In this document: one piece after another, positions 25,524 to 57,890 of the stretch
How the letters are laid out: each line of letters starts with the position of its first letter
Numbering within the stretch: position 1 is the first letter of the stretch
Source of the DNA: an uncultured Gemmatimonadota bacterium
Lineage (GTDB): Bacteria > JAAXHH01
Assembly: GCA_951812955.1 (NCBI GenBank)
Contig: OX638340.1
Coordinates: 256,001 to 320,000, forward strand
Length of the DNA stretch: 64,000 nt
Direction: 5' to 3'
The notes under the pieces: generated by a model
Told to the model about the DNA's origin: nothing
What the model saw: the letters and a program-made list of their open reading frames with translations, nothing else
Database searches by the model: none
Translations under genes and position numbers: made by a program

Positions 25524-25564
25524 CGGTCGGCACACCCCGATTTAATCCGTGGTCTTGCGCTGTC

Positions 25565-25597
25565 CATGCGGTCCGCCAGCCCATGCGGTCCGCCAGG
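25565..25597. repeat. Tandem direct duplication, 16-17 bp x2 (ccatgcggtccgccag), in a convergent intergenic region
   Basis: Read directly: ccatgcggtccgccag at 25565-25580, then cccatgcggtccgccag at 25581-25597. Confidence 0.9.
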
Positions 25598-27588: not shown

Positions 27589-27620
27589 TCAGGTCTCGCA
27601 TCGGTCTATGGATACCGGAT

Positions 27621-27687
27621 CAGCAGGCCGTCGCGGCGTATGTCCTTGCGTCAGCAGGCCGTCGCGGCGTATGTCCTTGCGTCAGGC
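27621..27687. repeat. Tandem direct duplication, 31 bp x2 plus partial third, between the sulfatase stop and the membrane-protein start
   Basis: cagcaggccgtcgcggcgtatgtccttgcgt at 27621-27651 and again at 27652-27682, then cagGCAG. The sulfatase stop (27682-27684) overlaps the end of copy 2. Confidence 0.9.
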
Positions 27688-29031
27688 AGACTGGCGTTCC
27701 CGCCATTCGACCTCCATGGGATCGGGGATGGCGTAGGGTTTGACGCGTTGTTCGTGCAGCCACTCCGACAGGTAGTGATCCATGCGTTGCTGGATTTCCG
27801 GCCGTTCCAGGGCCAGGTTGTACGTCTGATTCGGGTCGTTACGCATATCATACAAGGCCACTGGATCGAACCGGTAACCGAAGTCGTCGTACGTCCTGAC
27901 CATGAGATGGCCGGGTGTCCGCACCGCCCGTTGCAACGTGTACAGGCCGTGACCCCAGACCAGGAAGTCGTGCAGGTGGCAGCGTCCGGTCGCGAGTCCT
28001 TCCGCGAAAGACCGGCCGTCATAGTATTCCGGTACTTCCCCGCCAATCAGGTCGATCAGCGTGGCGCTGAAATCTACATTGTATAGCAGGTCGTCACAAG
28101 AGGATCCTGGCGGCGTAGTCCCCGGCCACTTGATGATCAGCGGGACCCGGTGTATGCATTCGTCGGCGCAGACGTGATCCCCGTAGATGCCGTGCTCTCC
28201 CATGGCCTCGCCGTGATCCGCCGAGACGATGACCGCCGTGTCGTCCAGGCTGCCCAGGGCGTCCAGCACCTGCTCCACGTGATGGTCGGCGTACCGGATC
28301 TCCGCGTCGTATCCGGTCACCAGGTGATTCAGGTCGTCCGTGTTCCGGATGGCGTCCGGCATATTCGGCGTGGGACTGGGCCGGTTCTGGGGAAAGAGGT
28401 GGGACGCGGTGAACCAACCGTCGATGTCCTGGTGGCCGCGGATCGCTTCGTTGTCCGGCCAGCTCACCGCCGGCGGATGGGCCGTCATACGTTCGAACCG
28501 GTCGCGGGGGGCTTCGTAAACCCGGTGCGGGTCCCAGTAGTTGATGTACAGGAAGTAATCGTCCCGGTCGCCGTTCGCGGCGATCCATTTCAGTACGGCT
28601 TCGTTGACCTCGTCCGCCGTCTCGTCCCCCGTCTTCAGGTTGGGCGAATGGAACTCCGACCAGCCCAGCCCGAACCAGGTCGCGCAGTGCCGGGTGGGGA
28701 AGTTGGAGAAGCAGACCGTGTCGTAGCCGTGCTGGCGCAGCCGTCTTTGCACCAACTGGTTCCGCTCGTCGGGCCCGCCGTAGCGCTGCTCCAGGATGTG
28801 AAGCCTGGAAGCGGGACCGCCGTGGGTCACCACGCCGTTGTTGATCCCGAAACGGCCGGTTATCCAGCCGTGCCGCGAAGGCATGCAGGGAGAGTCTGCG
28901 CAGTAGTACCGGTCGAACCGCATCCCCTGCGCGGCGATTTCATCGATGGCGGGCGAGGTGGGCCGGCCGTAGCCGTAGCAACCCAGGTGGTCGGGCCTCA
29001 GACTGTCGATGTCGAAATAGACGATGCGCAA
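27682..29031 (-). CDS. Sulfatase (formylglycine-dependent arylsulfatase family), no signal peptide
   Basis: N-terminal YCADSPCMPSRHGWITGR matches the C-x-P-x-R...TG sulfatase signature. The protein starts directly in the catalytic core, so it is predicted cytoplasmic. Confidence 0.85.
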   Translation of the reverse strand: MRIVYFDIDSLRPDHLGCYGYGRPTSPAIDEIAAQGMRFDRYYCADSPCMPSRHGWITGRFGINNGVVTHGGPASRLHILEQRYGGPDERNQLVQRRLRQHGYDTVCFSNFPTRHCATWFGLGWSEFHSPNLKTGDETADEVNEAVLKWIAANGDRDDYFLYINYWDPHRVYEAPRDRFERMTAHPPAVSWPDNEAIRGHQDIDGWFTASHLFPQNRPSPTPNMPDAIRNTDDLNHLVTGYDAEIRYADHHVEQVLDALGSLDDTAVIVSADHGEAMGEHGIYGDHVCADECIHRVPLIIKWPGTTPPGSSCDDLLYNVDFSATLIDLIGGEVPEYYDGRSFAEGLATGRCHLHDFLVWGHGLYTLQRAVRTPGHLMVRTYDDFGYRFDPVALYDMRNDPNQTYNLALERPEIQQRMDHYLSEWLHEQRVKPYAIPDPMEVEWRERQSA

Positions 29032-39152: not shown

Positions 39153-39176
39153 GGCTATTCACGGGTAAGATTTAAA

Positions 39177-39236
39177 TACCGTTATGCCAGGCAAAATACC
39201 GTTATGCCAGGCAAAATACCGTATTATCAGGCAAAC
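39177..39236. repeat. Tandem direct repeat, 20 bp x3 (third copy degenerate), upstream of polA
   Basis: taccgttatgccaggcaaaa at 39177-39196 and 39197-39216, then taccgtattatcaggcaaac at 39217-39236. Confidence 0.9.
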
Positions 39237-39317
39237 AAGCTATAACAACAACGGCCGTGGAAGGTGCGGTTTGCACCCGTCGCGGACCGGTTCCCACGAA
39301 GCCGGAGCTGTGAACCT

Positions 39318-42080
39318 ATGACCGAGTCGCAGAAGACCCTCTTTCTCCTGGATGGCATGGCCCTGGCCTACCGCGGTCATTTCGGCCTGATCCGCAACCC
39401 GAGGATGACCTCGACGGGCATGAACGTTTCCATGGTGTTCGCCATCGCCAATACCATCCTGGGCATTTTGAATAAGAACAAACCCACCCACATCGCCGCG
39501 GTGTTCGACACGCCCGAGCCCACTCATCGGCACGAACAGTATCCCGAGTACAAGGCGCAGCGGGACGCCATGCCCGAGGACCTGAGCATCGCCCTGCCCT
39601 ACCTGTTCCGGTTGATCGAGGGATTCAATATCCCCGTGATCCGCGTGCCCGGCTGGGAGGCCGACGACGTGATCGGCACCCTCGCGAAACAGGCCGACGA
39701 AGCGGGGTATACTACCTTCATGGTCACGCCGGACAAGGACTATGCGCAACTCGTCTCGGAGCAGTCCTTCATCTGCAAGCCCGGGAACACCGGGGACAAC
39801 TTCGAAACCATGGGCGTGGACGACGTGCTGGAGAAATGGGGGATCGAGCGCATCGACCAGGTAATCGACATGCTTGGCCTGATGGGCGACGCCAGCGACA
39901 ATGTGCCCGGCGTACCGGGAGTCGGCGAGAAGACCGCGCAGAAGCTCATCGCACAGTTCGGTTCCGTGGAGAATCTGCTTGATAACACGGAACAGTTGAA
40001 GGGCAAGCAGAAAGAGCGGATCGAGGAAAACCGGGATATTGCCCTGTTATCGAAGAGTCTCGTCACCATCGAACGGAACGTCCCGCTCGAGGTCACGCCG
40101 GATTCGTTCACCGTGAAAGACAGGTGCGATGAAGACCTGAAGAAACTGTTTGTCGAACTGGAGTTCAATACCCTGGGCAAGCGGCTATTCGGCGACGACT
40201 TCTCGGCGGCGCCAAGGTTGACCGTCGCCGGCAGCCAGGAAGACCTGTTCTCCGATGACCAGTTGAAGACGATTGCGGACGTGGAACACGATTACCGGTG
40301 CGTCGATAGCCCCGAATCCCGCGCCGCGCTCATCGAAGCACTGTCCCGTGCCTCTTCTTTCTGCTTCGACATGGAGACGACCAGCCTGGATCCCAAGACC
40401 TGTGAGATCCTCGGCTTTGCCTTCGCGATCGAGCCCCACACCGGATTCTACGTGCCCATGCCGGACGGACGGGAGGATGTACTGCGGGTCGCAGACGAAT
40501 TCCAATTCCTCTTCGACGATACCGGCAAGGAACTCATCGGGCACAACATCAAGTTCGATCTGTCCGTGCTCCGGTGGCACGGGATAACCGTCTCCTGCCG
40601 CATCTTCGACACCATGCTGGCGGCCTACGTGACCGTGCCGGACCTGCGGAGGACCATGGACTATCTGTCGCAGGCCCTCCTGGGCTACACGCCGATCTCC
40701 ATCACCACCCTCATCGGCGAGAAGGGCGAAGAGCAGGGCACGCTCAAGGATGCGCCGCTGGAGAAAGTCGTCGAATACGCGGCGGAAGACGCGGATGTCA
40801 CGCTGCAGCTAGCGGCATTGCTGCGGCCCCGGATCGGCGAGATGAACCAGGATACGGTCTTCACCGACATCGAGTGTCCCCTGGTGCCCGCCCTGGTGGA
40901 AATGGAACACGAAGGCGTGCAGATGGACGTGGGGCAGTTGGAGCACCTTTCCAGTCTGCTGGACGAAGAGATACAGCGGTCCTCGGACCGGATCACCGAA
41001 CTGGCAGGGGAACCCGTCGATTTCAATTCGGCAAAGCAGCTTGGTCACATCCTCTTCGACAAGCTGCAGATCGATCCAAACGCCAAGCGCACAGCCAAGA
41101 CCGGGCAGTATTCGACGGCGGAAGCCGTGCTCCGCAGACTGGCGCCCAAGCACGAAATCGTGGAGCAGATCCTTCATTACCGGATGTGTACCAAGCTCAA
41201 TTCCGTGTACGTGAGCCAACTGCCCCATTCCGTATTCCAGCAAACCGGTCGGGTACATACCTCCTATGAACAGGCCGTGATCGCCACCGGCCGGATCCAG
41301 TCCCACGGACCCAACCTGCAGACCATTCCGGTCCGCACGGAGATGGGCCGCCAGATCCGAAAGGCCTTCGTGCCCCGGGACGACGACTTTTTCCTGATGG
41401 CCGCGGACTATTCCCAGATCGAACTGCGCATCGCGGCCGAACTCAGCCGGGACGAAGGCATGATGGAGACCTTCATTCAGAAAGAGGACATCCACTCCGC
41501 TACGGCCATGAAAATCTATGACGTGGATCCTGACGGGGTGACCGACGAGATGCGCAGGCGCGCCAAGACCGTCAATTTCGGCATCATCTACGGCATCTCC
41601 GCCTTCGGGCTGGCCGAACGCCTCAACATCCCGAGGGGACAGGGCCAGGAATTGATCGACCAGTATTTCGCGAAGTATCCCGGCACGCGCAAGTACATGG
41701 ACGAAACGATCAAATTCGCGGAAGAGAACGGTTTCGTCGAGACCATGACAGGCCGGCGTCGGTACCTGCGTGACATTAATTCACGCAACAACACGACCAA
41801 GCGCGCCGAGGAGCGCGTCGCCATCAACTCCCGCATCCAGGGCACGGCGGCCGATCTGATCAAGCTGGCCATGACCCGGATCCACGAAGAGTTGAAAAAG
41901 CGGGAATGCAGGACCCGCATGCTGCTGCAGGTGCATGATGAACTCGTATTCGACCTGCATAAATCGGAAGAAGAGACCCTGCCCGGGCTGATCGAGGAGT
42001 GCATGCGGGGCGCACTGCCCATGACCGTGCCCATCGAGGTGGAGATCGGGATCGGCGCGAACTGGTTGGAAGCGCACTAG
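39318..42080 (+). CDS. polA: DNA polymerase I (5'-3' exonuclease, 3'-5' exonuclease and polymerase domains)
   Basis: 921 aa from MTESQKTLFLLDGMALAYRGHF. Includes ...VTPDKDYAQLV... (5' nuclease), ...CFDMETTSLD... (3' exo), and ...RRAKTVNFGIIYGIS...LQVHDELVFD... (pol motifs A-C). Confidence 0.95.
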   Translation: MTESQKTLFLLDGMALAYRGHFGLIRNPRMTSTGMNVSMVFAIANTILGILNKNKPTHIAAVFDTPEPTHRHEQYPEYKAQRDAMPEDLSIALPYLFRLIEGFNIPVIRVPGWEADDVIGTLAKQADEAGYTTFMVTPDKDYAQLVSEQSFICKPGNTGDNFETMGVDDVLEKWGIERIDQVIDMLGLMGDASDNVPGVPGVGEKTAQKLIAQFGSVENLLDNTEQLKGKQKERIEENRDIALLSKSLVTIERNVPLEVTPDSFTVKDRCDEDLKKLFVELEFNTLGKRLFGDDFSAAPRLTVAGSQEDLFSDDQLKTIADVEHDYRCVDSPESRAALIEALSRASSFCFDMETTSLDPKTCEILGFAFAIEPHTGFYVPMPDGREDVLRVADEFQFLFDDTGKELIGHNIKFDLSVLRWHGITVSCRIFDTMLAAYVTVPDLRRTMDYLSQALLGYTPISITTLIGEKGEEQGTLKDAPLEKVVEYAAEDADVTLQLAALLRPRIGEMNQDTVFTDIECPLVPALVEMEHEGVQMDVGQLEHLSSLLDEEIQRSSDRITELAGEPVDFNSAKQLGHILFDKLQIDPNAKRTAKTGQYSTAEAVLRRLAPKHEIVEQILHYRMCTKLNSVYVSQLPHSVFQQTGRVHTSYEQAVIATGRIQSHGPNLQTIPVRTEMGRQIRKAFVPRDDDFFLMAADYSQIELRIAAELSRDEGMMETFIQKEDIHSATAMKIYDVDPDGVTDEMRRRAKTVNFGIIYGISAFGLAERLNIPRGQGQELIDQYFAKYPGTRKYMDETIKFAEENGFVETMTGRRRYLRDINSRNNTTKRAEERVAINSRIQGTAADLIKLAMTRIHEELKKRECRTRMLLQVHDELVFDLHKSEEETLPGLIEECMRGALPMTVPIEVEIGIGANWLEAH

Positions 42081-42091
42081 CAAGCCGGCCG

Positions 42092-42182
42092 TAACTGGAA
42101 GATGGACATTGTCTGGAAGATTGATAGTTAACTGGAAGATGGACAGCGATCTGGAGATTCTGATCGCAGGCGGCCTGGAAGA
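42092..42182. repeat. Tandem ~37-38 bp repeat x2 plus partial third, containing five CTGGA(A)GA(T) cores at about 18-24 bp spacing, upstream of the Rieske-fusion operon
   Basis: taactggaagatggaca at 42092-42108 and 42129-42145. tctggaagattgata at 42112-42126 matches tctggagattctgat at 42150-42164. A fifth core ctggaaga is at 42175-42182. Confidence 0.85.
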
Positions 42183-42221
42183 CATCAGCGAAAATCACAC
42201 AAACAGAAAGGCAAGGATTCC

Positions 42222-44012
42222 ATGAGCTCAGGAAACGGCTGGATCCGGGTCGGAACTACGACCGACATAGCGCCCGGGGAATCCCGCGCCGTTAGAATCA
42301 GCGAGGGCCGCAGCGTTGCCCTCTTCAACGTCAACGGCCGGATACATGCTACCGACAACCAATGTCCCCACATGGGGTTTCCACTGACCCGCGGCGTGGT
42401 GAAGGACGGCATCCTGACGTGCGACTGGCATGGCCGCAGTTTCGATCTGGAAGGCGGCGGCTGCTTCAATTACGAATGCGACGACCTGGAGACGTACCCC
42501 GTCGACATTCGAGGAGATGAACTGTGGGTGCAGGCCGGGGACGCCACCTACAAGCGGCGGGACCAGCACCTGCAACTGCTCTGGGAGGGCCTGCTGAGCG
42601 GGGACTCGTGGACGATTTCGAAGGCCACTGCCCTCCTTCTGTCCGGTGGTGTTTCAGAACACGACATCGTGCAGTTGATCTTGCGCCACCTGGGCCGTCA
42701 CGTCGCGTCGGAACGGGACGCGGGCGGCGGCGGCGATGTCGTTTCACTCCTGGTCTCCGGTCTTGAAGTCGGCAAAAGGTTTGACGGAGAAGACCGGCTG
42801 ATGGCGTTGTCGCTGGCCGGCCGCGCAGCGTCGGGTAGGGCGTCGGAAAGGCTCGAGGTCATTACGCTGCCCCCTCCCGTCCGCTGGGATCAGATAGACG
42901 ACTGGGTACGCATGTTTTCCCGAAACATGCAGGATTTCCGTATCGAACGGTGTTTGCACACGGCCTGCGAGAACGGCCACCAGGACCATATCTTCAAACT
43001 GTTGTTCGAGTGTGCGGTGGCGCCGTACTTCCTCGGATTTTCCCGAAACGTGGCCAGCCTGGGTGATCTCGCAAGGGTGGTGGATACCTTCGGATGGGGC
43101 GAGGCGTCCGAACTGGTCTGCAACCTCGGCGCAAAGATGACGGGCCGAGGGCGCGACGAGCCGGAGCGGTTTCACCGGGATGCCGTCCGGCTGCTCACCG
43201 AACTCGCGCCTGAACTGGAATCACATGATTACGAAGGGAACACGCGCACGGAATACGACGAGAACGCCCTCGTGGACGCCCTGTTGAGCGTCGATATCGA
43301 GCGGTCTTTCGAAGCCGTGACACGGGCCCTGCGGGACGGCGTGGCGATCGAGCGTCTTATCACGACCTTCGTGCTGCTCGCCGCCGACCGCATGGCGCGT
43401 ACGCCCGTGAACGTCGACGCGGGGTGGGGACCGCTGTCCACCGAGTTCAACCTGGCGGCTTCCCTGCGACATGTCCACGCATACGGTGGGCCCGCTGCAG
43501 CGGCGAAGGGCCTGTACCATGCGGCCTGGCAGATTTTCGACAACCGATGGATCAATATCCCCGCACGGTCGCTCGACGAACCCCTTCCCGCCCATCGAAC
43601 GGACACACCGGACGCGGCAGCCGCTTCGGATCTCATTGTCCATTCCATCAAGTCGCTGGATATCCACGGGGTGGGCGATCAGGTGGTGGGTTACCTCAAC
43701 AGCGGATTCGACGGGTCGGACCTGCTCAAGGAAGTGGGACGGGCGATCCTGTGGGACGATACCAACATGGAGCTCCTTCCCACACTGCGCGTCGCGTTCA
43801 ACGAATGGGAAGGTTCAGGGGGTGGCGCAGGCGGCGGAGACGCAAGCGGGGGTGGCGCAGGTGGAAAGGGCCATCCGTCCCGGTATCAGCTCCTGGTGGG
43901 ACTGGTGCGCTACGCCACGGATGTGCGATTGAACAAGAACAGCATGGCCTCCATCAACACGGCCATGCGATTTTCTGAAGGCCGGACGACCGTAGAGGTG
44001 TTCGACGAATAA
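42222..44012 (+). CDS. Rieske [2Fe-2S] domain (NirD / Rieske-ferredoxin-like) fused to a ~480-aa C-terminal domain of unknown function
   Basis: N-terminus CPHMGFPLTRGVVKDGILTCDWHG (CxH-x16-CxxH) ...LETYPV. The rest is helical-looking, with no motif I recognise. Confidence 0.7.
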   Translation: MSSGNGWIRVGTTTDIAPGESRAVRISEGRSVALFNVNGRIHATDNQCPHMGFPLTRGVVKDGILTCDWHGRSFDLEGGGCFNYECDDLETYPVDIRGDELWVQAGDATYKRRDQHLQLLWEGLLSGDSWTISKATALLLSGGVSEHDIVQLILRHLGRHVASERDAGGGGDVVSLLVSGLEVGKRFDGEDRLMALSLAGRAASGRASERLEVITLPPPVRWDQIDDWVRMFSRNMQDFRIERCLHTACENGHQDHIFKLLFECAVAPYFLGFSRNVASLGDLARVVDTFGWGEASELVCNLGAKMTGRGRDEPERFHRDAVRLLTELAPELESHDYEGNTRTEYDENALVDALLSVDIERSFEAVTRALRDGVAIERLITTFVLLAADRMARTPVNVDAGWGPLSTEFNLAASLRHVHAYGGPAAAAKGLYHAAWQIFDNRWINIPARSLDEPLPAHRTDTPDAAAASDLIVHSIKSLDIHGVGDQVVGYLNSGFDGSDLLKEVGRAILWDDTNMELLPTLRVAFNEWEGSGGGAGGGDASGGGAGGKGHPSRYQLLVGLVRYATDVRLNKNSMASINTAMRFSEGRTTVEVFDE

Positions 44013-45788: not shown

Positions 45789-45820
45789 CATGGGTTGAAT
45801 CGGTTGCGAGGTGAATGGGC

Positions 45821-47122
45821 ATGGACACCGATCATTCTGGCAAGCGTCTTTACGAATGCTATCATCAAGACCCCGACGAGGCCGACCGGATTCTGTTCGG
45901 ACGCCGTACTCACCCGGACCGTCGCGGATTCCTTAAGAACGCGGGCCTGGCGGCCATGGGCGTGCTGGTCGGCGCCGCGATACCCTTTCATCGCAACGTC
46001 CCTGCCCATTTCATTCCGGTCGTGCTCGCCGCAGAGAACACCATTCAGGGCAAGGACGGCCTGACTGTCCTCAACGATCGCCCCATGTGCGCGGAAACGC
46101 CGCCACACCTCCTCGACGACGCCATAACACCCACCGCAAGACACTTCGTCCGCAATAACGGATTGATGCCGGAAGACCTGGACGCATCGCGCTGGAAACT
46201 GGCGATCGACGGACTGGTCGACAGTCCGTTGATACTCACCCTCGAGGATCTTGAAGGCCGGTTCGAGGTCGTCACCCGGGCGTTGACCCTGGAATGCGCG
46301 GGAAACGGCCGGGCATTCTTCGACCCGAAGACGAATGGCGAACAGTGGACCTACGGTGCCGTTGCCTGCTCGGAATGGACGGGAGTGCGGTTTTCCGACG
46401 TACTGACGGCCGCCGGAATGAAGCGCGAAGCCGTCTACACCGCGCACTACGGCGCCGATACCCACCTGTCCGGTGTGGAGGCCGGACTTCCCATCTCCCG
46501 CGGCGTACCGATCGAAAAGGCCATGGATGGACACAGCCTCATCGCCTTCGCACAGAACGGGCGGCCGATCCACCCGACGAACGGCGGCCCATTGCGGCTG
46601 ATCATACCGGGATGGCCCGGGTCTTGTTCCCAGAAATGGTTGACCCGCATTGAGATTCGGGACCAGGTACACGACGGACCCAAGATGACCGGCTCGTCCT
46701 ATCGGTTGCCGAGTCGAAGGATCGAACCCGGCGAGGCCGTGGACGAAAAAGACTTCCAAATCATAGAAAGCATGCCGGTAAAGTCGCTCATCACCCACCC
46801 GGCGACGGGGCACAGATCGAATGACAGATCAGTGGAAGTACGGGGACATGCGTGGACGGGTGAGGGACGCGTCACCGCGGTTGATCTTTCGATCGACTTC
46901 GGGTCAACCTGGAAGCGTGCGTCGCTGGAGGAACCGGTCAACGCCTTCGCCTGGCAGAACTGGCGCGCTTCGTTCTCGTTTCCACAGGCGGGGTATTACG
47001 AGGTTTGGGCGAGAGCCACCGACTCTCTGGGCGTCAGCCAGCCCCACGCCATCGCGTGGAATCCGGGTGGCTACCTAAACAACGCCATGCACCGCGTCGC
47101 GGTGTACGTGGAATCTGAATAG
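45821..47122 (+). CDS. Sulfite-oxidase-family molybdopterin oxidoreductase (SorA-like), Tat-exported
   Basis: Twin-arginine motif DRRGFLKNAGLAAMGVLVGAA, the Mo-ligand Cys context LTLECAGNGRAFF, and a C-terminal dimerisation (Ig-like) region. GAGGTG lies 7 nt upstream of ATG 45821; an ATG at 45815 is also in frame. Confidence 0.8.
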   Translation: MDTDHSGKRLYECYHQDPDEADRILFGRRTHPDRRGFLKNAGLAAMGVLVGAAIPFHRNVPAHFIPVVLAAENTIQGKDGLTVLNDRPMCAETPPHLLDDAITPTARHFVRNNGLMPEDLDASRWKLAIDGLVDSPLILTLEDLEGRFEVVTRALTLECAGNGRAFFDPKTNGEQWTYGAVACSEWTGVRFSDVLTAAGMKREAVYTAHYGADTHLSGVEAGLPISRGVPIEKAMDGHSLIAFAQNGRPIHPTNGGPLRLIIPGWPGSCSQKWLTRIEIRDQVHDGPKMTGSSYRLPSRRIEPGEAVDEKDFQIIESMPVKSLITHPATGHRSNDRSVEVRGHAWTGEGRVTAVDLSIDFGSTWKRASLEEPVNAFAWQNWRASFSFPQAGYYEVWARATDSLGVSQPHAIAWNPGGYLNNAMHRVAVYVESE

Positions 47123-47248: not shown

Positions 47249-47593
47249 ATGCACATATTGCGCGTCGTTTTTTACACGACTAAAACAGGTCGCGAACCGG
47301 TTCGTGACTGGATGGCGTCTCTAACCCGTGACGAAAAGAAGATTGTAGGAGTGGATTTAAAAACAGTCCAGTTCGGCTGGCCTTTGGGCATGCCACAAGT
47401 GCGCAAACTGGATCGTGGGATTTGGGAAGTAAGGTCAGCACTTAAAGGGCGCATAGCACGAGTGCTGTTCACAGTTCAAGGTAACAGCATCGTTTTATTA
47501 CACGGGTTCATCAAGAAGGTTCGTAAGACGCCCTATCAGGATCTACGTCTCGCAAAAACACGATTGGCTACGTTGGGAGATACGTCAGGATGA
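47249..47593 (+). CDS. Type II toxin, RelE/ParE superfamily (HigB / Gp49-like)
   Basis: 114 aa. ...GIWEVRSALKGRIARVLF...IVLLHGFIKKVRKTPYQDLRLAKTR matches the phage-related-protein toxin fold. Low local GC. Overlaps the next gene by ATGA. Confidence 0.75.
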   Translation: MHILRVVFYTTKTGREPVRDWMASLTRDEKKIVGVDLKTVQFGWPLGMPQVRKLDRGIWEVRSALKGRIARVLFTVQGNSIVLLHGFIKKVRKTPYQDLRLAKTRLATLGDTSG

Positions 47594-47877
47594 CTTCGGA
47601 TGACCGTCACATTGGAAGCGACTTCGATCTATACCTGAAGGAAGAAGGACTGATTGTAGAAGTTGAAAGAGTCGCGATAAAGCGTGCAGTCGCCTATCAA
47701 GTAGCTCAATTCATGTTGAATCAAGGTCTGAGCAAGACAGAAATGGCCCGGCGCATGCGCACAAGTCGCGCCTCACTGGATCGTCTTCTTGATCCTAACA
47801 ATGGATCTGTCACACTGCAAACCCTGGAACGGGCGGCCGATGCACTGGGACGGCGCTTGCATATCTCGCTGGTTTGA
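47590..47877 (+). CDS. HTH (XRE-type) antitoxin, HigA-like
   Basis: 95 aa. C-terminal helix-turn-helix ...QGLSKTEMARRMRTSRASLDRLL.... 4-bp overlap with the toxin gene. Confidence 0.7.
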   Translation: MTSDDRHIGSDFDLYLKEEGLIVEVERVAIKRAVAYQVAQFMLNQGLSKTEMARRMRTSRASLDRLLDPNNGSVTLQTLERAADALGRRLHISLV

Positions 47878-48878: not shown

Positions 48879-50057
48879 TCAGCCCTCGTTTTTTGTCTTC
48901 AGTATGACGTTCTCGGATTCCCTTTCCCATGTTTCGTTGTAGACCAGTGGCCTCGGTCTGCGCGGCGGGTAATCCGGAGGGGGATTATCCGGGTCGTTCA
49001 GCTCCAGGCGGTCGCGGCCCCGGGGCGCTTCGTACCAGTGTTTTTCCCGTTCGGCCGCTTCAATCTCCCTTCGGAGGATGAACTCCGCGTGATCGAAACC
49101 GGAGATCGCCGCGTCCGCCAGAAACACGCGGTGCACCTCGCGGCCGTCCCAGGTTTCCAGGTCCGGCAGGATCACGGGGCCCGTGCAGACCTGAAACTCG
49201 GCGTCTTCTTCGTTAATATTGATCAGATCCACAGGAAACTCAAGGGTAACCTGCATGTTCCGGTCCGCCCGGTCCGCCCGGTCCGCCTGGTCCGCCTGGC
49301 CAGCTTGGACTGTTTGGCTCGCCTGGCCTGCTTGACCCGTTTGACCCGTTTGACCCGCTAGGCCCGGCTGGTCCGGATCATGACAGACAGTCCAGGCGAT
49401 CCTGCCATTCATGAGATCCCGGTTGATCGTCGCGTCCACGACAGCCCGCGCGTCCGTCAGGGTTTCCTCGGAATCATACTGCCTGATATCGATTTCGTGG
49501 GCCTGGAATTGTTTTTCAAGCGGAGTACCCCTGTATTCGGCGGCCTCGTTACTCGGTCTTCGCGATATAGGGATGCTCTGACTTCGGCTAAACGCCATGC
49601 GCCATTCGTCGCTGGGAATCTGAAAGAGGTTTCGGCGGGCGATCGTGTATTCCGTGCGACACGGAGCGCCCAGGTAAATTTCGGTACGGTGTCCCGAGTC
49701 CAGGTCTTCCACGGTACAGGCCGCCTCGAGGTGGAACCGCACCTGGTAGGCCTGTCCCGGCACCCCGACAAAACCGCCCGTATACTTGTAGACCGGATCG
49801 GGTTTCCAGGGCGAGGATTTCCAGTGGAAAGAAGAGCGATGGAAAGCGATCATGGGCCTGGTCTTCGGCTTGGTCTTTGTGGCATTCGCATACCGGGCCA
49901 TCCGGGCTTGAAATGTGCTTCTCTCATTTGTACCGATTTGATGCGGCAATGTCCCAAAATGACCTATTCTACCCATGCAGGCAATACAAAACTGCGTTTC
50001 CGCCCTGCGGACCGCGACCGTGATTTTTGTTGCGAGCGTGGGGTCCGCAGGATACAT
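48879..50057 (-). CDS. Hypothetical protein with an internal 3-aa-periodic low-complexity tract (GQT/GQA/ADQ/ADR repeats)
   Basis: Long ORF with a clear stop at 48879. Start uncertain: candidate ATGs at 50057, 49976, 49901 and 49853, none with a good SD. The repeat PGLAGQTGQTGQAGQASQTVQAGQADQADRADRADR separates two non-repetitive domains. Confidence 0.35.
   Translation of the reverse strand: MYPADPTLATKITVAVRRAETQFCIACMGRIGHFGTLPHQIGTNERSTFQARMARYANATKTKPKTRPMIAFHRSSFHWKSSPWKPDPVYKYTGGFVGVPGQAYQVRFHLEAACTVEDLDSGHRTEIYLGAPCRTEYTIARRNLFQIPSDEWRMAFSRSQSIPISRRPSNEAAEYRGTPLEKQFQAHEIDIRQYDSEETLTDARAVVDATINRDLMNGRIAWTVCHDPDQPGLAGQTGQTGQAGQASQTVQAGQADQADRADRADRNMQVTLEFPVDLININEEDAEFQVCTGPVILPDLETWDGREVHRVFLADAAISGFDHAEFILRREIEAAEREKHWYEAPRGRDRLELNDPDNPPPDYPPRRPRPLVYNETWERESENVILKTKNEG
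49261..49380. repeat. 9-bp-periodic degenerate tandem repeat inside a CDS (encodes the GQx/ADx tract)
   Basis: cggtccgcc x3, tggtccgcc, ... tgacccgtt x2, tgacccgct ...; a decaying 9-mer array. Confidence 0.8.
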
Positions 50058-50080: not shown

Positions 50081-50142
50081 ATGACGGCGCGCAACTCCGG
50101 AAAATGACGGCGCGCAACTCCGGAAAATGACGGCGCGCAGCC
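50081..50142. repeat. Tandem direct repeat, 23 bp x2.7, upstream of aceE
   Basis: atgacggcgcgcaactccggaaa at 50081-50103 and 50104-50126, then atgacggcgcgcagcc at 50127-50142. Confidence 0.9.
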
Positions 50143-50172: not shown

Positions 50173-52854
<2,682 letters not shown>

Positions 52855-52857
52855 CCG

Positions 52858-52897
52858 GCGTAACGCGTAACTCCGCGTAACGCGTACTCCGCGTCGG
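52858..52897. repeat. Tandem direct duplication, 16-17 bp x2 plus partial third, rich in self-complementary ACGCGT, between convergent genes
   Basis: gcgtaacgcgtaactcc at 52858-52874, gcgtaacgcgtactcc at 52875-52890, then gcgtcgg. The ACGCGT cores could pair as a hairpin. Confidence 0.85.
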
Positions 52898-53727: not shown

Positions 53728-53832
53728 CGCCAGTCCTCACCGGTTCACGGCGCGCTTGGTGACAAGCCGTCTGTTGACATACCTGTTGGCCGGGGTTATC
53801 TTTCGATGCGGTTTACCCGGGTGAACGGACCT

Positions 53833-54528
53833 TCATCCGTCGTCTCCGAAGAGTCTTCGTCGCGTATCGATCACGATATCGGCCATGTTTTCCCACGACG
53901 TGCGGGACGTGTTGAAAACCATGTGGTACAGCGTCGGGTCCGTCCAGTCGCGGTGATAGTTGTGCTGCAAGTACAATGCCCGCTGCCGGTCCTTCTCCTT
54001 GATGAGTTCCGCGGCCCGGTCATGCGCAAGGTTCATCTCGTCCATAATCACGTCGACTCGGTATTCGAATGGCGCGATGAACCGGGTGTGGAAGACGTTA
54101 TTGCTGTCCGACAGGATGCACTGGCTGCCGCGCCCGACGATGATGATATGTTTTCTGTCGGACAGCGAACGGATGGTATCCTGGAGGATCTGGAGGTATT
54201 CTCCCCGATCCAGAAACGTGTTCTTGAGCGAAGTGGGATCCTTCGTTCCTTCGTCGTCCCCCGGTACATAGGGCCAGATGAGCGGCGGATATTCAGGGGA
54301 CAGGGAGTAGACAGTTGTGGGGGTGAACAATTCGCCGAGAAATCGCCTGATGGTCGATTCTCCCACTTCGTCCAACTGCTCGACGACATCTTCCGAAACG
54401 CCCGCGGTATGGGCGATCTCGGCAATGAGTTCCTTGTCCACGCAATCATAGCCGAGGCGGTCCGCGATGATCTTCGCGATGTCCTTCCCGCCGCTGCCGT
54501 ATTCTCTGGCAACCGTTATGATGCTCAT
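53833..54528 (-). CDS. Cytidylate-kinase-like family P-loop protein
   Basis: MSIITVAREYGSGGKDIAKIIADRLGY is the typical CMP-kinase-like N-terminus; 231 aa. Confidence 0.7.
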   Translation of the reverse strand: MSIITVAREYGSGGKDIAKIIADRLGYDCVDKELIAEIAHTAGVSEDVVEQLDEVGESTIRRFLGELFTPTTVYSLSPEYPPLIWPYVPGDDEGTKDPTSLKNTFLDRGEYLQILQDTIRSLSDRKHIIIVGRGSQCILSDSNNVFHTRFIAPFEYRVDVIMDEMNLAHDRAAELIKEKDRQRALYLQHNYHRDWTDPTLYHMVFNTSRTSWENMADIVIDTRRRLFGDDG

Positions 54529-54593
54529 GATGGACTCCTTAGTTGCGTGCAGCCGTCGAAGGAGGCGAGTAAACCGTTAGAAAGCGCCCCGCC

Positions 54594-55442
54594 ATGCCCC
54601 TTCATGAACCGTTGGACGAGACCGCGGGCTTCCTGGGTTCGCAGGGGTTTGCAACGGCCCGTATCGGGATGATCCTGGGCACTGGATTCGGTGCTTGCGT
54701 CCAGGCAGTCGAACAGAAATCCGTTGTGCCCTACGGTTCTATCCCCCATTTTCCGGAGTCGACCGTCAAGGGCCACGAGGGCAACCTCGTCTTCGGCGCC
54801 ATGGGCGAGGCATCCGTGATTGTGATGCAGGGCCGTATCCACCTGTACGAGGGATACGACGCGAGCCAGATTGCGTATCCCCTCGAGGTGATGCGCCGGT
54901 TCGGCGTCGAGGTTCTGATCGTGACCAATGCCGCCGGTGGACTGAATCCGCGGTACGCGCCGGGGGACCTCATGGTCGTTCGCCAGCATATCCATCCCAT
55001 TGGCCGTCACATGATGGGAAACCTGACTCCAGGAACAGACCGTGATCCCTGTTACGATGAGGATTTGAGGGCATCGCTTCTACAGATTAGTATACAAAGA
55101 AATCGGTCTGTTCAACAGGGAATTTTAGCATGGATGCCAGGACCTTCTTTCGAGACCCGTGCCGAAATCTCTCTGCTGAAAACGCTGGGAGCAGATGCGG
55201 TGACCATGTCTACCGTACCGGAAGTACTGGCAGGCCGGGGGCTTGGTATGCGGACCGCGGCCGTATCGTGCATATCCAATGTCTGGACCGGTCGAACCGG
55301 CGAATCCGCAGACGTCGCCGACGTAGTGTCAACGGTTGAATCGTCGGCCGGCCTCTGTTCGGATCTGCTGGTCCGCCTGATCCGCCAGGTCCACCAGATC
55401 GGTCTGGCCGGTCGGGACCGCAGGGTGACTGGCCAACATTAA
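54594..55442 (+). CDS. Purine nucleoside phosphorylase (PNP/MTAP family 2)
   Basis: ...IGMILGTGFG...YGSIPHFPESTVKGHEGNLVFG...VMQGRIHLYEGY.... Confidence 0.85.
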   Translation: MPLHEPLDETAGFLGSQGFATARIGMILGTGFGACVQAVEQKSVVPYGSIPHFPESTVKGHEGNLVFGAMGEASVIVMQGRIHLYEGYDASQIAYPLEVMRRFGVEVLIVTNAAGGLNPRYAPGDLMVVRQHIHPIGRHMMGNLTPGTDRDPCYDEDLRASLLQISIQRNRSVQQGILAWMPGPSFETRAEISLLKTLGADAVTMSTVPEVLAGRGLGMRTAAVSCISNVWTGRTGESADVADVVSTVESSAGLCSDLLVRLIRQVHQIGLAGRDRRVTGQH

Positions 55443-55483
55443 GACGGTTGTAATTTAACATTTATAACGCAAGCGAGTCGAAT

Positions 55484-56359
55484 ATGGCCTGGTTTGAAAG
55501 AAGACAGCGGGGTTTAAACCCGCAGAAGCGCAAGGAAATCCCGAAGGGGTTATGGGTAAAGTGCGACAAGTGCGACGCCATGCTGTACAAGGCGGAGCTC
55601 GAACGGGACTTCAATGTGTGCACCCAGTGCGGGTTTCATTTCAAGATCGGCCATCAGGCGTATATCTCCCTGATCATGGACACGGACACCTTCGAGGAGA
55701 CCGACACGGATCTGCGCACCGTCGATCCGCTCGAGTTCAAGGAGAAGGAGAACTACCCGGACTACATGAAGCGGTACCAGAAAAGGACGGGCATGAGGGA
55801 GGCCGTGGTGTCGGGCACCGGCCGCATCGACGGAAGGCTCGTATCCCTGTCCATCCACGACGGTTCCTTCCTGGCCGGGAGCATGGGGTCCGTGGTCGGC
55901 GAGAAAGTGACGCGATCCATCAGAAGGTCGCTCGACCTGGAGATACCGCTGCTTGTGGTCGCCACTTCGGGGGGAGCCCGCATGCAGGAAGGCATCCTCT
56001 CCCTCATGCAGATGGCGAAGACTTCCCTCTGGCTGAACCGCCTGTCGGAGGAGAAGATCCCTTTTGTTGTCGTGATTACGAATCCGACCATGGCCGGCGT
56101 GATGGCGAGTTATGCATCGCTGGGAGACTTTACCCTGGCCGAGCCGGGCGCCATGATGGGCTTCGCCGGTGGAAGGGTGATCGAACAGACCATAGGGTCG
56201 AGTCTGCCGGAAGGATTCCAGACCGCCGAGTTTTTCCTGACCAAAGGTTTCGTGGACCAGGTCGTACCCAGGACCAGTTTGCGGGAGAAGCTGGTCACGA
56301 TCCTGGGTTTTTTCCCGGATCGGGAGAAGAAGGAAGCACAGGCAAAAGAAGCGCCTTGA
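55484..56359 (+). CDS. accD: Acetyl-CoA carboxylase carboxyltransferase beta subunit
   Basis: N-terminal zinc-ribbon CDKCDAMLY...CTQCGFHF, then the carboxyltransferase core ...GGARMQEG...MAGVMASYA.... Confidence 0.9.
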   Translation: MAWFERRQRGLNPQKRKEIPKGLWVKCDKCDAMLYKAELERDFNVCTQCGFHFKIGHQAYISLIMDTDTFEETDTDLRTVDPLEFKEKENYPDYMKRYQKRTGMREAVVSGTGRIDGRLVSLSIHDGSFLAGSMGSVVGEKVTRSIRRSLDLEIPLLVVATSGGARMQEGILSLMQMAKTSLWLNRLSEEKIPFVVVITNPTMAGVMASYASLGDFTLAEPGAMMGFAGGRVIEQTIGSSLPEGFQTAEFFLTKGFVDQVVPRTSLREKLVTILGFFPDREKKEAQAKEAP

Positions 56360-56480
56360 TGTGCCTGCCGCCAAGCAGGATGGCCCTGCCCTGTCGCCCT
56401 GTCATGAGCGGTACGATGTGGTACCGTCCCTGGACCAGTGCGCCTCTGGCGGGCTCCCAGCCTCAGGCAGCTCGCAGGCG

Positions 56481-57890
56481 CTACGATTCCAGCATGAGCT
56501 TGTTAAGTGAATCTTCGGGGACGACCGGGTAGTCTCCGCTGAAGCAGGCCGTACAATACCCCGTCCCTGACTTGCCGTATTCCTTCGCGATTTTTACCAT
56601 GCCCTCGATGGACAGGTAACCCAGGCTGTCCGCACCCAGGTATGTGCGAATCTCATCCACCCGGGTCTGCGAAGCGATGAGCTCGCCCCGGCTCTGCATG
56701 TCGATCCCGTAATAGCACGGGTGGCGGATGGGAGGACTGCTGATCCGTACGTGTACCTCGGAGGCGCCCGCGCTGCGGATGAGTCTTACCAGCTGATTGA
56801 GCGTCGTGCCCCGCACGATGGAATCGTCCACGAGGACCACCCGCCGGTTTCGCAACACGCCCTGGACCGGGTTGTACTTCAGTCTCACCGTGAACTCCCG
56901 CATGGACTGGTCCGGGTCGATAAATGACCTTCCCACGTAGTGATTCCTGATCAGGCCGATTTCGAACCGGATTCCCGAATGCTCTGAGTAGCCCAGCGCG
57001 GCTGTCGTGGCGGAATCGGGCACGGCGATGACGATATCGGCGTTCACGGGGTGCTCCTCCGCCAGCCGGCGGCCGAAACGCCGGCGGAACTTGTCGCTGT
57101 TTTCCCCGAAAACCTTGCTGTCGGGCCGGGCGAAATAAATGTATTCGAAGATGCAGGAGGCAGGTACCGCGCGATCGAAGGGAAAGTAGGACTGGATTCC
57201 GTTCTCGTCGATGACGACCATTTCTCCCGGGTTCACTTCCCTGACGTACTCCGCGTTCATGATGTCGAAGGCGCAGGTTTCCGAAGCGAGCACGTGGGCA
57301 TCCCCGATGCGTCCCAGGCATAGCGGGCGGAATCCGCGGGGATCCCGGACGCCAATGAGTTGCTTCCCGGACAGGAATACGATGGAATAGGCGCCTTCGA
57401 CGTGGCGTAAGGCGTCGGAGATCATGCCGGGCAGATCGGATTCGTTCGATCGCGCGATGAGATGAAGGACGATCTCGCTGTCGGACGAGGTGCGGAAAAT
57501 CGATCCGGACTCTTCCATCGACAGGTGGAGCGCGCCGGTATTGGTAAAATTACCGTTGTGAGCGGTGGCCAACTGTCCGCGCTTGAAGTTGACCATGAAT
57601 GGCTGTGCGTTGTCTACGTTGGATGTGCCGGTGGTGGAATACCGGTTGTGGCCGATGGCGATATGGCCATCAAGATCGGCCACGCGATCGCCGTGCTCAT
57701 AGGCTTCGCTGACCAGTCCCATGGCGCGGTGAGAATCGATATGTTCGCCGTCGGAGACGGCCATGCCGGAGCTTTCCTGGCCGCGGTGCTGGAGGGCGTA
57801 CAGGCCCAGAAAGGTCAGCTTGGCGGCGGCCGGGTCGCCATAAATGCCGAAGACACCGCACTCCTCGCGAATTTCGTCGTCTTCCCACAT
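56481..57890 (-). CDS. purF: Amidophosphoribosyltransferase (with short N-terminal propeptide)
   Basis: ...EECGVFGIYG... (Cys nucleophile after the propeptide), ...DPRGFRPL..., and the C-terminal PRTase motif VVLVDDSIVRGTT. Confidence 0.95.
   Translation of the reverse strand: MWEDDEIREECGVFGIYGDPAAAKLTFLGLYALQHRGQESSGMAVSDGEHIDSHRAMGLVSEAYEHGDRVADLDGHIAIGHNRYSTTGTSNVDNAQPFMVNFKRGQLATAHNGNFTNTGALHLSMEESGSIFRTSSDSEIVLHLIARSNESDLPGMISDALRHVEGAYSIVFLSGKQLIGVRDPRGFRPLCLGRIGDAHVLASETCAFDIMNAEYVREVNPGEMVVIDENGIQSYFPFDRAVPASCIFEYIYFARPDSKVFGENSDKFRRRFGRRLAEEHPVNADIVIAVPDSATTAALGYSEHSGIRFEIGLIRNHYVGRSFIDPDQSMREFTVRLKYNPVQGVLRNRRVVLVDDSIVRGTTLNQLVRLIRSAGASEVHVRISSPPIRHPCYYGIDMQSRGELIASQTRVDEIRTYLGADSLGYLSIEGMVKIAKEYGKSGTGYCTACFSGDYPVVPEDSLNKLMLES

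Follow-up and report, generated by a model that had tools for sequence, protein, structure and literature searches.

Positions 42092-42182 of the 64,000-nucleotide (nt) stretch analysed here (the window; part of contig OX638340.1 from an uncultured Gemmatimonadota bacterium) hold an array of direct repeats between polA (DNA polymerase I) and the first Rieske-fusion gene. The question raised by this locus is whether the array controls the genes downstream or is spacer DNA that has grown by duplication; the original prediction, made from the window alone, had allowed for both. As judged from comparison with related genomes, the array is quite probably non-functional and unconstrained spacer DNA, young and specific to its lineage, that arose by serial tandem duplication at the polA-Rieske junction. 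The repeats exist, are restricted to one lineage and are not constrained, and independent duplications that span a stop codon recur both at the polA-Rieske junction and at the next one. The mechanism that we infer for the array is slippage.

The array comprises four exact CTGGAAGA cores and one degenerate core, CTGGAGAT, with core-to-core spacings of 18, 19, 19 and 24 nt (Table 1). It lies in the 141-nt gap between the polA stop codon (TAG, 42078-42080) and the ATG of the Rieske-fusion gene at 42222, a spacer that reads, in order, CAAGCCGGCCG, TAACTGGAAGATGGACATTGT, CTGGAAGATTGATAGT, TAACTGGAAGATGGACAGCGAT, CTGGAGATTCTGATCGCAGGCGGC and CTGGAAGACATCAGCG AAAATCACACAAACAGAAAGGCAAGGATTCC. The exact 17-mer TAACTGGAAGATGGACA is present at 42092 and 42129 (an offset of 37 nt), and these remain its only occurrences in the window at up to three mismatches (0.05 expected). 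Tandem Repeats Finder (TRF) reports 3.3 copies of period 19 with 74-75% matches, the copies being ~25% diverged from each other. CTGGAAGA is found 10 times in the window compared with 1.85 ± 1.29 times in shuffled sequence (0 of 100 shuffles reach 10); four of these sites belong to the array and the remaining six are all within coding regions. The array recurs in the independent assemblies L010, L036 and L053 and is thus not an assembly artefact. The five-core direct-repeat array that had been described is therefore real. The length given for the gap (141 nt) is also correct, but the repeats fill 91 of the 141 nt and not 'almost entirely' the whole, and the 18-19 bp spacing amounts to 1.7-1.8 helical turns rather than about two.

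The Rieske-fusion protein has at least 881 homologues, the closest of which are in uncultured bacteria labelled Gemmatimonadetes or Latescibacterota; many of the isolate names (APA_bin, IRC1_bin, SB06xx, Plut_) suggest bins from sponge or coral metagenomes. Contig look-ups and one genome scan provided ~25 genomes (83-99% protein identity), and the order amidohydrolase, polA, Rieske1, Rieske2 is kept in all of them. The array is present in four: the window, L036 (OY762445.1, 99% protein identity), L010 (APA_bin_41, 97% identity) and L053 (MKWU01010803.1, 95.8% DNA identity over 1200 nt, from a metagenome scan). The polA-to-Rieske spacer is 19 nt long in L011, 31 nt in L014 and L016 and 34 nt in L022 and L037; other spacers measure 46, 63-69, 81-85, 96-118 and 135-141 nt. 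The ribosome-binding site is the sole motif common to all spacers, the longer ones also sharing a proximal block. Its GAAAGG, located 8-14 nt ahead of the ATG, does not vary in an 11-genome alignment (A1) and is present or one base off (TAAAGG in L037) in the spacers of the remaining relatives. The proximal leader is identical among the four carriers at 36-39 of its 39 positions. Since relatives get by with spacers as short as 19-34 nt, transcription of the Rieske genes probably continues from polA or begins at a promoter within it.

Change in the array among the four carriers is no slower than at synonymous sites. Variable columns make up 22 of 91 in the array (24%) compared with 55 of 597 third-codon positions of Rieske1 (9%; Fisher p = 1e-4, the array being the faster); at first and second codon positions of Rieske1, 22 of 1194 vary. 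Pairwise identity to the window is 85-91% for the array and 93.5-96.6% for third-codon positions. For the window and L036 the values are 85.6% (array), 91.4% (polA third positions) and 96.6% (Rieske1 third positions). The window, L010 and L053 have CTGGAAGATTGATAG as unit 2, where L036 has the A-type TGGGAAGGTGGACAAC, and 12 variable columns fall within 42108-42130. When this replaced unit is left out, 10 of 67 array columns vary (15% versus 9%, p = 0.13). Core 5 is CTGGAAGA in the window; L036 has CCGGAAGA in its place and L053 has CCGTAAGA, and L010 has lost part of it.

Elsewhere in the clade, as far as examined, polA ends in GCGAACTGGCTGGAAGCGCAC followed by the stop codon, a tail that reads CTGGCTGG, a slip-prone microrepeat. 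Comparison of the polA tails of the ~25 genomes reveals that in at least five relatives (L039, L018, L013, L037 and L012; Table 1) the 3' end of the gene, including the stop codon, has been duplicated in tandem with units of 13-26 nt. The units and their boundaries differ among the five, so these are independent events. The second 18-nt copy of L013 is absent in its close relative L017, a copy-number difference in a repeat analogous to the array. At the next junction the Rieske1 tail and stop are duplicated in L015 (29 nt, 2.3 copies) and in L023 (13 nt, 2.6 copies, with more GGCGACGAATAGCGG copies visible), and internal duplications in other genomes lengthen the Rieske1-Rieske2 spacer from 23-25 nt to 59-129 nt. 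In 19 of 20 genomes the spacer that follows polA is closer to the polA tail than to that of Rieske1, and the spacer that follows Rieske1 is closer to the Rieske1 tail in 15 of 20 (one reverse case, four ties), although these counts come from related genomes and hence are not independent. Literature searches turned up no paper that deals with duplications across stop codons or with the genes of this locus. A separate observation concerns the other end of polA: in L037 a 34-nt duplication (1150-1221, 2.1 copies) lies across the polA start, the first copy forming a 13-codon open reading frame (ORF) and the second the real start, and so mirrors the stop-spanning duplications.

The window's own units can be connected to the polA tail through intermediate steps. 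The proximal block containing core 5 aligns across the clade (A1) with the consensus CGAACTGGAAGACATCAGCGGAAAGCACAC..CAGAAAGG. The start of this consensus, CGAACTGGAAG, is the polA tail CGAACTGG[CTGG]AAG minus one CTGG of the CTGGCTGG microrepeat, and its GCACAC.AG recalls GCGCACTAG; scored against shuffles, the match of block and polA tail gives p = 0.03-0.05. The spacer of L019 retains CTGGAAGCACAC and GCACACTAG (p = 0.008). Unit A of the window (AACTGGAAGATGGACAGCG) has AACTGGAAGA...CAGCG in common with the proximal block, and unit A2 taken alone matches the polA tail with p = 0.02. When each polA tail is aligned locally to its own spacer, the score exceeds shuffles significantly only in L018, L019, L017 and L039. 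By this chain of homology, and by analogy with the relatives, the polA tail is the probable, if far from certain, origin of the array.

Short tandem duplications would arise in the polA-Rieske junction by replication slippage or by misalignment at microhomologies. A duplication that spans the gene boundary would leave one intact gene end, stop codon included, and would thus be tolerated while the extra copy drifts. In the ancestor of the clade the polA tail (CGAACTGG[CTGG]AAGCGCACTAG) may have been copied once or twice, and the copies would have decayed into the proximal block; core 5 is accordingly placed as the putative oldest copy of the array. The ancestor of the window, L010, L053 and L036 would then have re-duplicated a 19-nt derivative, CTGGAAGATGGACAGCGAT, to give cores 1-4. 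The window branch has a 37-nt A+B/A+B pattern and L036 an 18-nt A/A/A pattern, which suggests that units kept turning over after the lineages split.

Four results weigh against this account. The whole window spacer is not significantly similar to the polA tail (p = 0.16-0.34). Cores 1, 3 and 4 with their flanks (~57 nt) are near-identical in the four carriers, with one variable column; at such low divergence this is not significant, and constraint on those three sites would remain compatible with the sequences. There is no simple copy-number polymorphism, the number of units being equal in all four carriers. A comparison of orthologous spacers had been set beforehand to separate neutral slippage (variable copy number, no conserved core) from function, and its outcome goes largely towards slippage: a conserved core is for the most part lacking in related strains, although the carriers show no copy-number variation. 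Finally, spacers of distant outgroup loci have 0.56 tandem repeats per kb and those of the clade 0.57, an equal density, so there is no evidence for a special mutational regime.

The last point bears on the window as a whole. A rough gene map leaves 4.55 kb of intergenic DNA, in which TRF (score >= 50) identifies six tandem repeats (Table 1); the window-wide pattern of intergenic tandem duplications is thereby borne out. The polA-Rieske junction of several relatives has independent tandem duplications, some of them perfect, which favours the view, also raised in the original prediction, that the array is a slippage-derived member of that pattern. Four further repeats are intragenic and have periods of 15, 9, 9 and 24, all multiples of 3, a split between intergenic and intragenic repeats that would follow from short duplications arising throughout the DNA and from selection against those that shift the frame. 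A clade-specific excess of intergenic repeats was considered and rejected, since the outgroup loci are equally dense and only the Escherichia coli sample is lower (zero tandem repeats in 4.49 kb of intergenic DNA from 50 kb of strain K-12, a small sample). Intragenic in-frame repeats are located at 43818-43859, 49260-49366 and 52618-52671, and the 15-nt one in Rieske1 is also present in L036. The intergenic repeats at 25564, 27620, 50081 and 52858 are perfect or nearly so. The 31-nt pair at 27620 begins at the stop of a gene on the minus strand (27682-29031), and each of its copies ends in CTGA, as does the gene. The repeat upstream of polA (39174-39235) is common to L036 (953-1014 there), and its copies are more alike within than between the genomes (GTTATGCC versus GTAATGCC), a pattern that indicates ongoing homogenisation (concerted evolution) or re-duplication.

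A wider claim would be that the polA end is a recurrent duplication hot spot, that boundary-spanning duplications are the main source of new intergenic DNA in the clade and that arrays are occasionally co-opted as binding sites. The polA-Rieske junction has at least five independent duplications across the stop codon, and the next junction has further ones, which is compatible with a hot spot; the claim in its entirety is tentative, and we consider it rather unlikely.

Improbable, on the comparisons made here, is a recent cis-regulatory element in which a transcription factor would occupy three to five direct-repeat sites and control a lineage-specific promoter of the Rieske operon. Three near-identical 14-nt sites, CTGGAAGAT(G/T)GA(C/T)A, do lie 18-19 bp apart directly upstream of the operon, but this spacing places successive sites on different faces of the helix. 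Cores 1, 3 and 4 do not differ among the four carriers, whereas cores 2 and 5 are lost in some of them and overall variability exceeds that of synonymous sites. The array is confined to four very close genomes despite the conserved gene order, being absent in ~20 relatives with the same operon, some of which have spacers (19-34 nt) too short to contain it. The G+C content of the array region (0.47-0.53, or 0.49 when assessed as a replication origin) is lower than in the flanks (~0.6), a point in favour of such an element, yet neither a sigma-70-like promoter nor an intrinsic terminator was found in 41700-42600 by a scan that does not include the promoter types of this phylum. A sigma-54-like promoter was rejected, as the spacing TGG N9 [T/A]GC gives weak matches only (TGGAAGATGGACAGC) and the TTGC element is missing. 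There is no IHF-like site in the array region, no match to a regulator family among the flanking genes examined and no second, regulon-like copy of the unit between genes in the 64-kb window. In a metagenome scan with CTGGAAGATGGACA N3-8 CTGGA, 75 of 76 matches are unrelated single chance ones and the other is the same locus in the sister strain L053; hence the unit does not belong to a dispersed family. The phased binding array (of response-regulator, IHF or iteron-like type), and with it the control region, that had been proposed for this locus is thus not supported.

Less probable again is an action at the level of RNA, either as a purine-rich 5' leader with repeated GGA motifs for a CsrA-like or other RNA-binding protein or as an upstream ORF (42139-42226) that couples translation. 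The 141-nt spacer contains 8 GGA triplets, of which one overlaps the ribosome-binding site, compared with 3.9 ± 1.6 in shuffles (p = 0.017), but the excess results from counting the repeated unit several times; the leader RNA has a fold no more stable than that of shuffled sequence (z = 0.11) and matches no Rfam family at E <= 1. The ORF (28 codons) overlaps the Rieske start through ATGA in the window and L036, but it was rejected as a gene because a TAA truncates it in L010 and L053 and its ATG lacks a properly spaced ribosome-binding site; the element is moreover absent in other members of the clade. A further upstream ORF, at ATG 42102, has 9 codons. A remnant of replication-origin or plasmid iterons, or of a dispersed mobile repeat (REP- or MITE-like), would share the head-to-tail 18-19 bp units but is close to refuted, there being no gene for a replication initiator in the vicinity, no DnaA box in the array region at up to 2 mismatches, no GC-skew switch at the array, no inverted repeats or palindromes inside it, no other copy in the window and next to nothing but unrelated matches in the metagenome scan.

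Tandem repeats formed by slipped-strand mispairing were reportedly treated by Levinson and Gutman in 1987 and by van Belkum et al. in 1998, and slippage repeats are an already known kind of feature. The array resembles such minisatellite or variable-number tandem repeats in its head-to-tail units of 17-37 nt in non-coding DNA, its restriction to a lineage, the replacement of a unit between close strains, the lack of constraint and the perfect young examples at the same junction. It differs from them in the equal copy number of its carriers, in the divergence of its copies and in that its founder seems to be the end of the upstream coding sequence and not a pre-existing spacer. With iterons and the operator arrays of response regulators it has in common several direct repeats of similar length, 18-19 bp apart, upstream of an operon; unlike in those systems, no initiator or regulator gene, promoter, AT-rich unwinding region or DnaA box was found here, and the sites are out of helical phase and not conserved in orthologous spacers. 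RNAs with GGA repeats of the CsrB/RsmZ type and CsrA-bound leaders also have multiple GGA motifs, one of them over the ribosome-binding site, but the GGA motifs of the array lie outside hairpin loops and come with no significant fold, conservation or Rfam match.

As to the neighbouring genes, the 920-amino-acid (aa) gene calls of relatives and the alignment to L036 suggest that the true start of polA is the ATG near 39318. The model of the Rieske-fusion protein has a mean pLDDT (predicted local distance difference test) of 84. The first 105 residues of the protein match Rieske ferredoxins, and the ~490 that follow are all-helical in the model, with no relative in the PDB at the sequence level and no Pfam family. 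The architecture that this suggests is a Rieske domain joined to a helical, oxygenase-like one. Directly after Rieske2 the window has a SorA/SoxC-like molybdoenzyme (45815-47122) with a twin-arginine translocation (TAT) signal, which scores below the NCBIfam cut-offs. In relatives the Rieske2-molybdoenzyme junction is an insertion site for Fic, D12 methyltransferase, a SacI-like restriction enzyme and GmrSD fragments (L001, 7895-9767; L004, 7676-8701; L006 and L007, 7560-9767); the equivalent in the window is a 26-nt gap (45789-45814). The genes at 47249-47877 and 53806-56532 have a third-codon G+C content of 0.40-0.57 compared with ~0.75-0.85 elsewhere. The pair at 47249-47877 weakly resembles a RelE/ParE-type toxin and a small DNA-binding partner, and this resemblance together with its low third-codon G+C means that it is probably foreign DNA.

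Table 1. Features of the polA-Rieske junction, intergenic tandem repeats of the window and polA-tail duplications in relatives.
Feature	Genome	Position	Strand	Unit and copies	Identity	Remarks
polA	window	39264-42080	+			Longest ORF, from GTG 39264; Pfam DNA_pol_A, 5'-3' exonuclease and 3'-5' exonuclease domains
polA 3' terminus GGCGCGAACTGGTTGGAAGCGCACTAG	window	42054-42080	+			..GANWLEAH*; probable founder of the repeat unit
Unit A1 TAACTGGAAGATGGACATTGT	window	42092-42112	+			Core 1 at 42095; core same in all four carriers, 3' end of unit variable
Unit B1 CTGGAAGATTGATAGT	window	42113-42128	+			Core 2 at 42113; A-type in L036
Unit A2 TAACTGGAAGATGGACAGCGAT	window	42129-42150	+			Core 3 at 42132
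Unit B2 CTGGAGATTCTGATCGCAGGCGGC	window	42151-42174	+			Degenerate core 4 at 42151
Core 5 and tail CTGGAAGACATCAGCG	window	42175-42190	+			Core 5 at 42175; orthologous to the GGAAG(C/A)ACA block of relatives' spacers (alignment A1)
Proximal leader with ribosome-binding site	window	42183-42221	+			GAAAGG 42206-42211, AAGGA 42213-42217
First Rieske-fusion gene	window	42222-44012	+			596 aa; Pfam Rieske domain, residues 7-93
Intergenic tandem repeat	window	25564-25596		17 nt		
Intergenic tandem repeat	window	27620-27685		31 nt	100%	
Intergenic tandem repeat	window	39174-39235		20 nt, 3.1 copies		Between amidohydrolase gene and polA
Intergenic tandem repeat	window	42092-42182		19 nt		polA-Rieske array
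Intergenic tandem repeat	window	50081-50139		23 nt, 2.6 copies	100%	Divergent promoter region
Intergenic tandem repeat	window	52858-52894		17 nt		
Stop-spanning polA-tail duplication	L039			AACTGGCTGGAAGCACACTAA, 21 nt, 2.0 copies	100%	
Stop-spanning polA-tail duplication	L018			GCGAACTGGCTGGAAGCGCACTAGCG, 26 nt, 2.8 copies	93%	
Stop-spanning polA-tail duplication	L013			TGGCTGGAAGCTCATTGA / TGGCTGGAAGCCCATTAA, 18 nt		
Stop-spanning polA-tail duplication	L037			GAAGCGCACTAAAATA, 16 nt, 2.0 copies	100%	
Stop-spanning polA-tail duplication	L012			GCGCATTAGCGGC, 13 nt, 2.7 copies		

The array should thus not be taken for the control region of the Rieske-fusion genes. It also carries a warning, that regular direct repeats in a single genome do not amount to a protein-binding array without comparative data. 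In this clade the spacers of a conserved row of genes grow repeatedly through tandem duplication of the last 13-29 bases of the upstream gene, stop codon included, and the copies, which range from perfect to decayed, form a natural series of how intergenic DNA is born.
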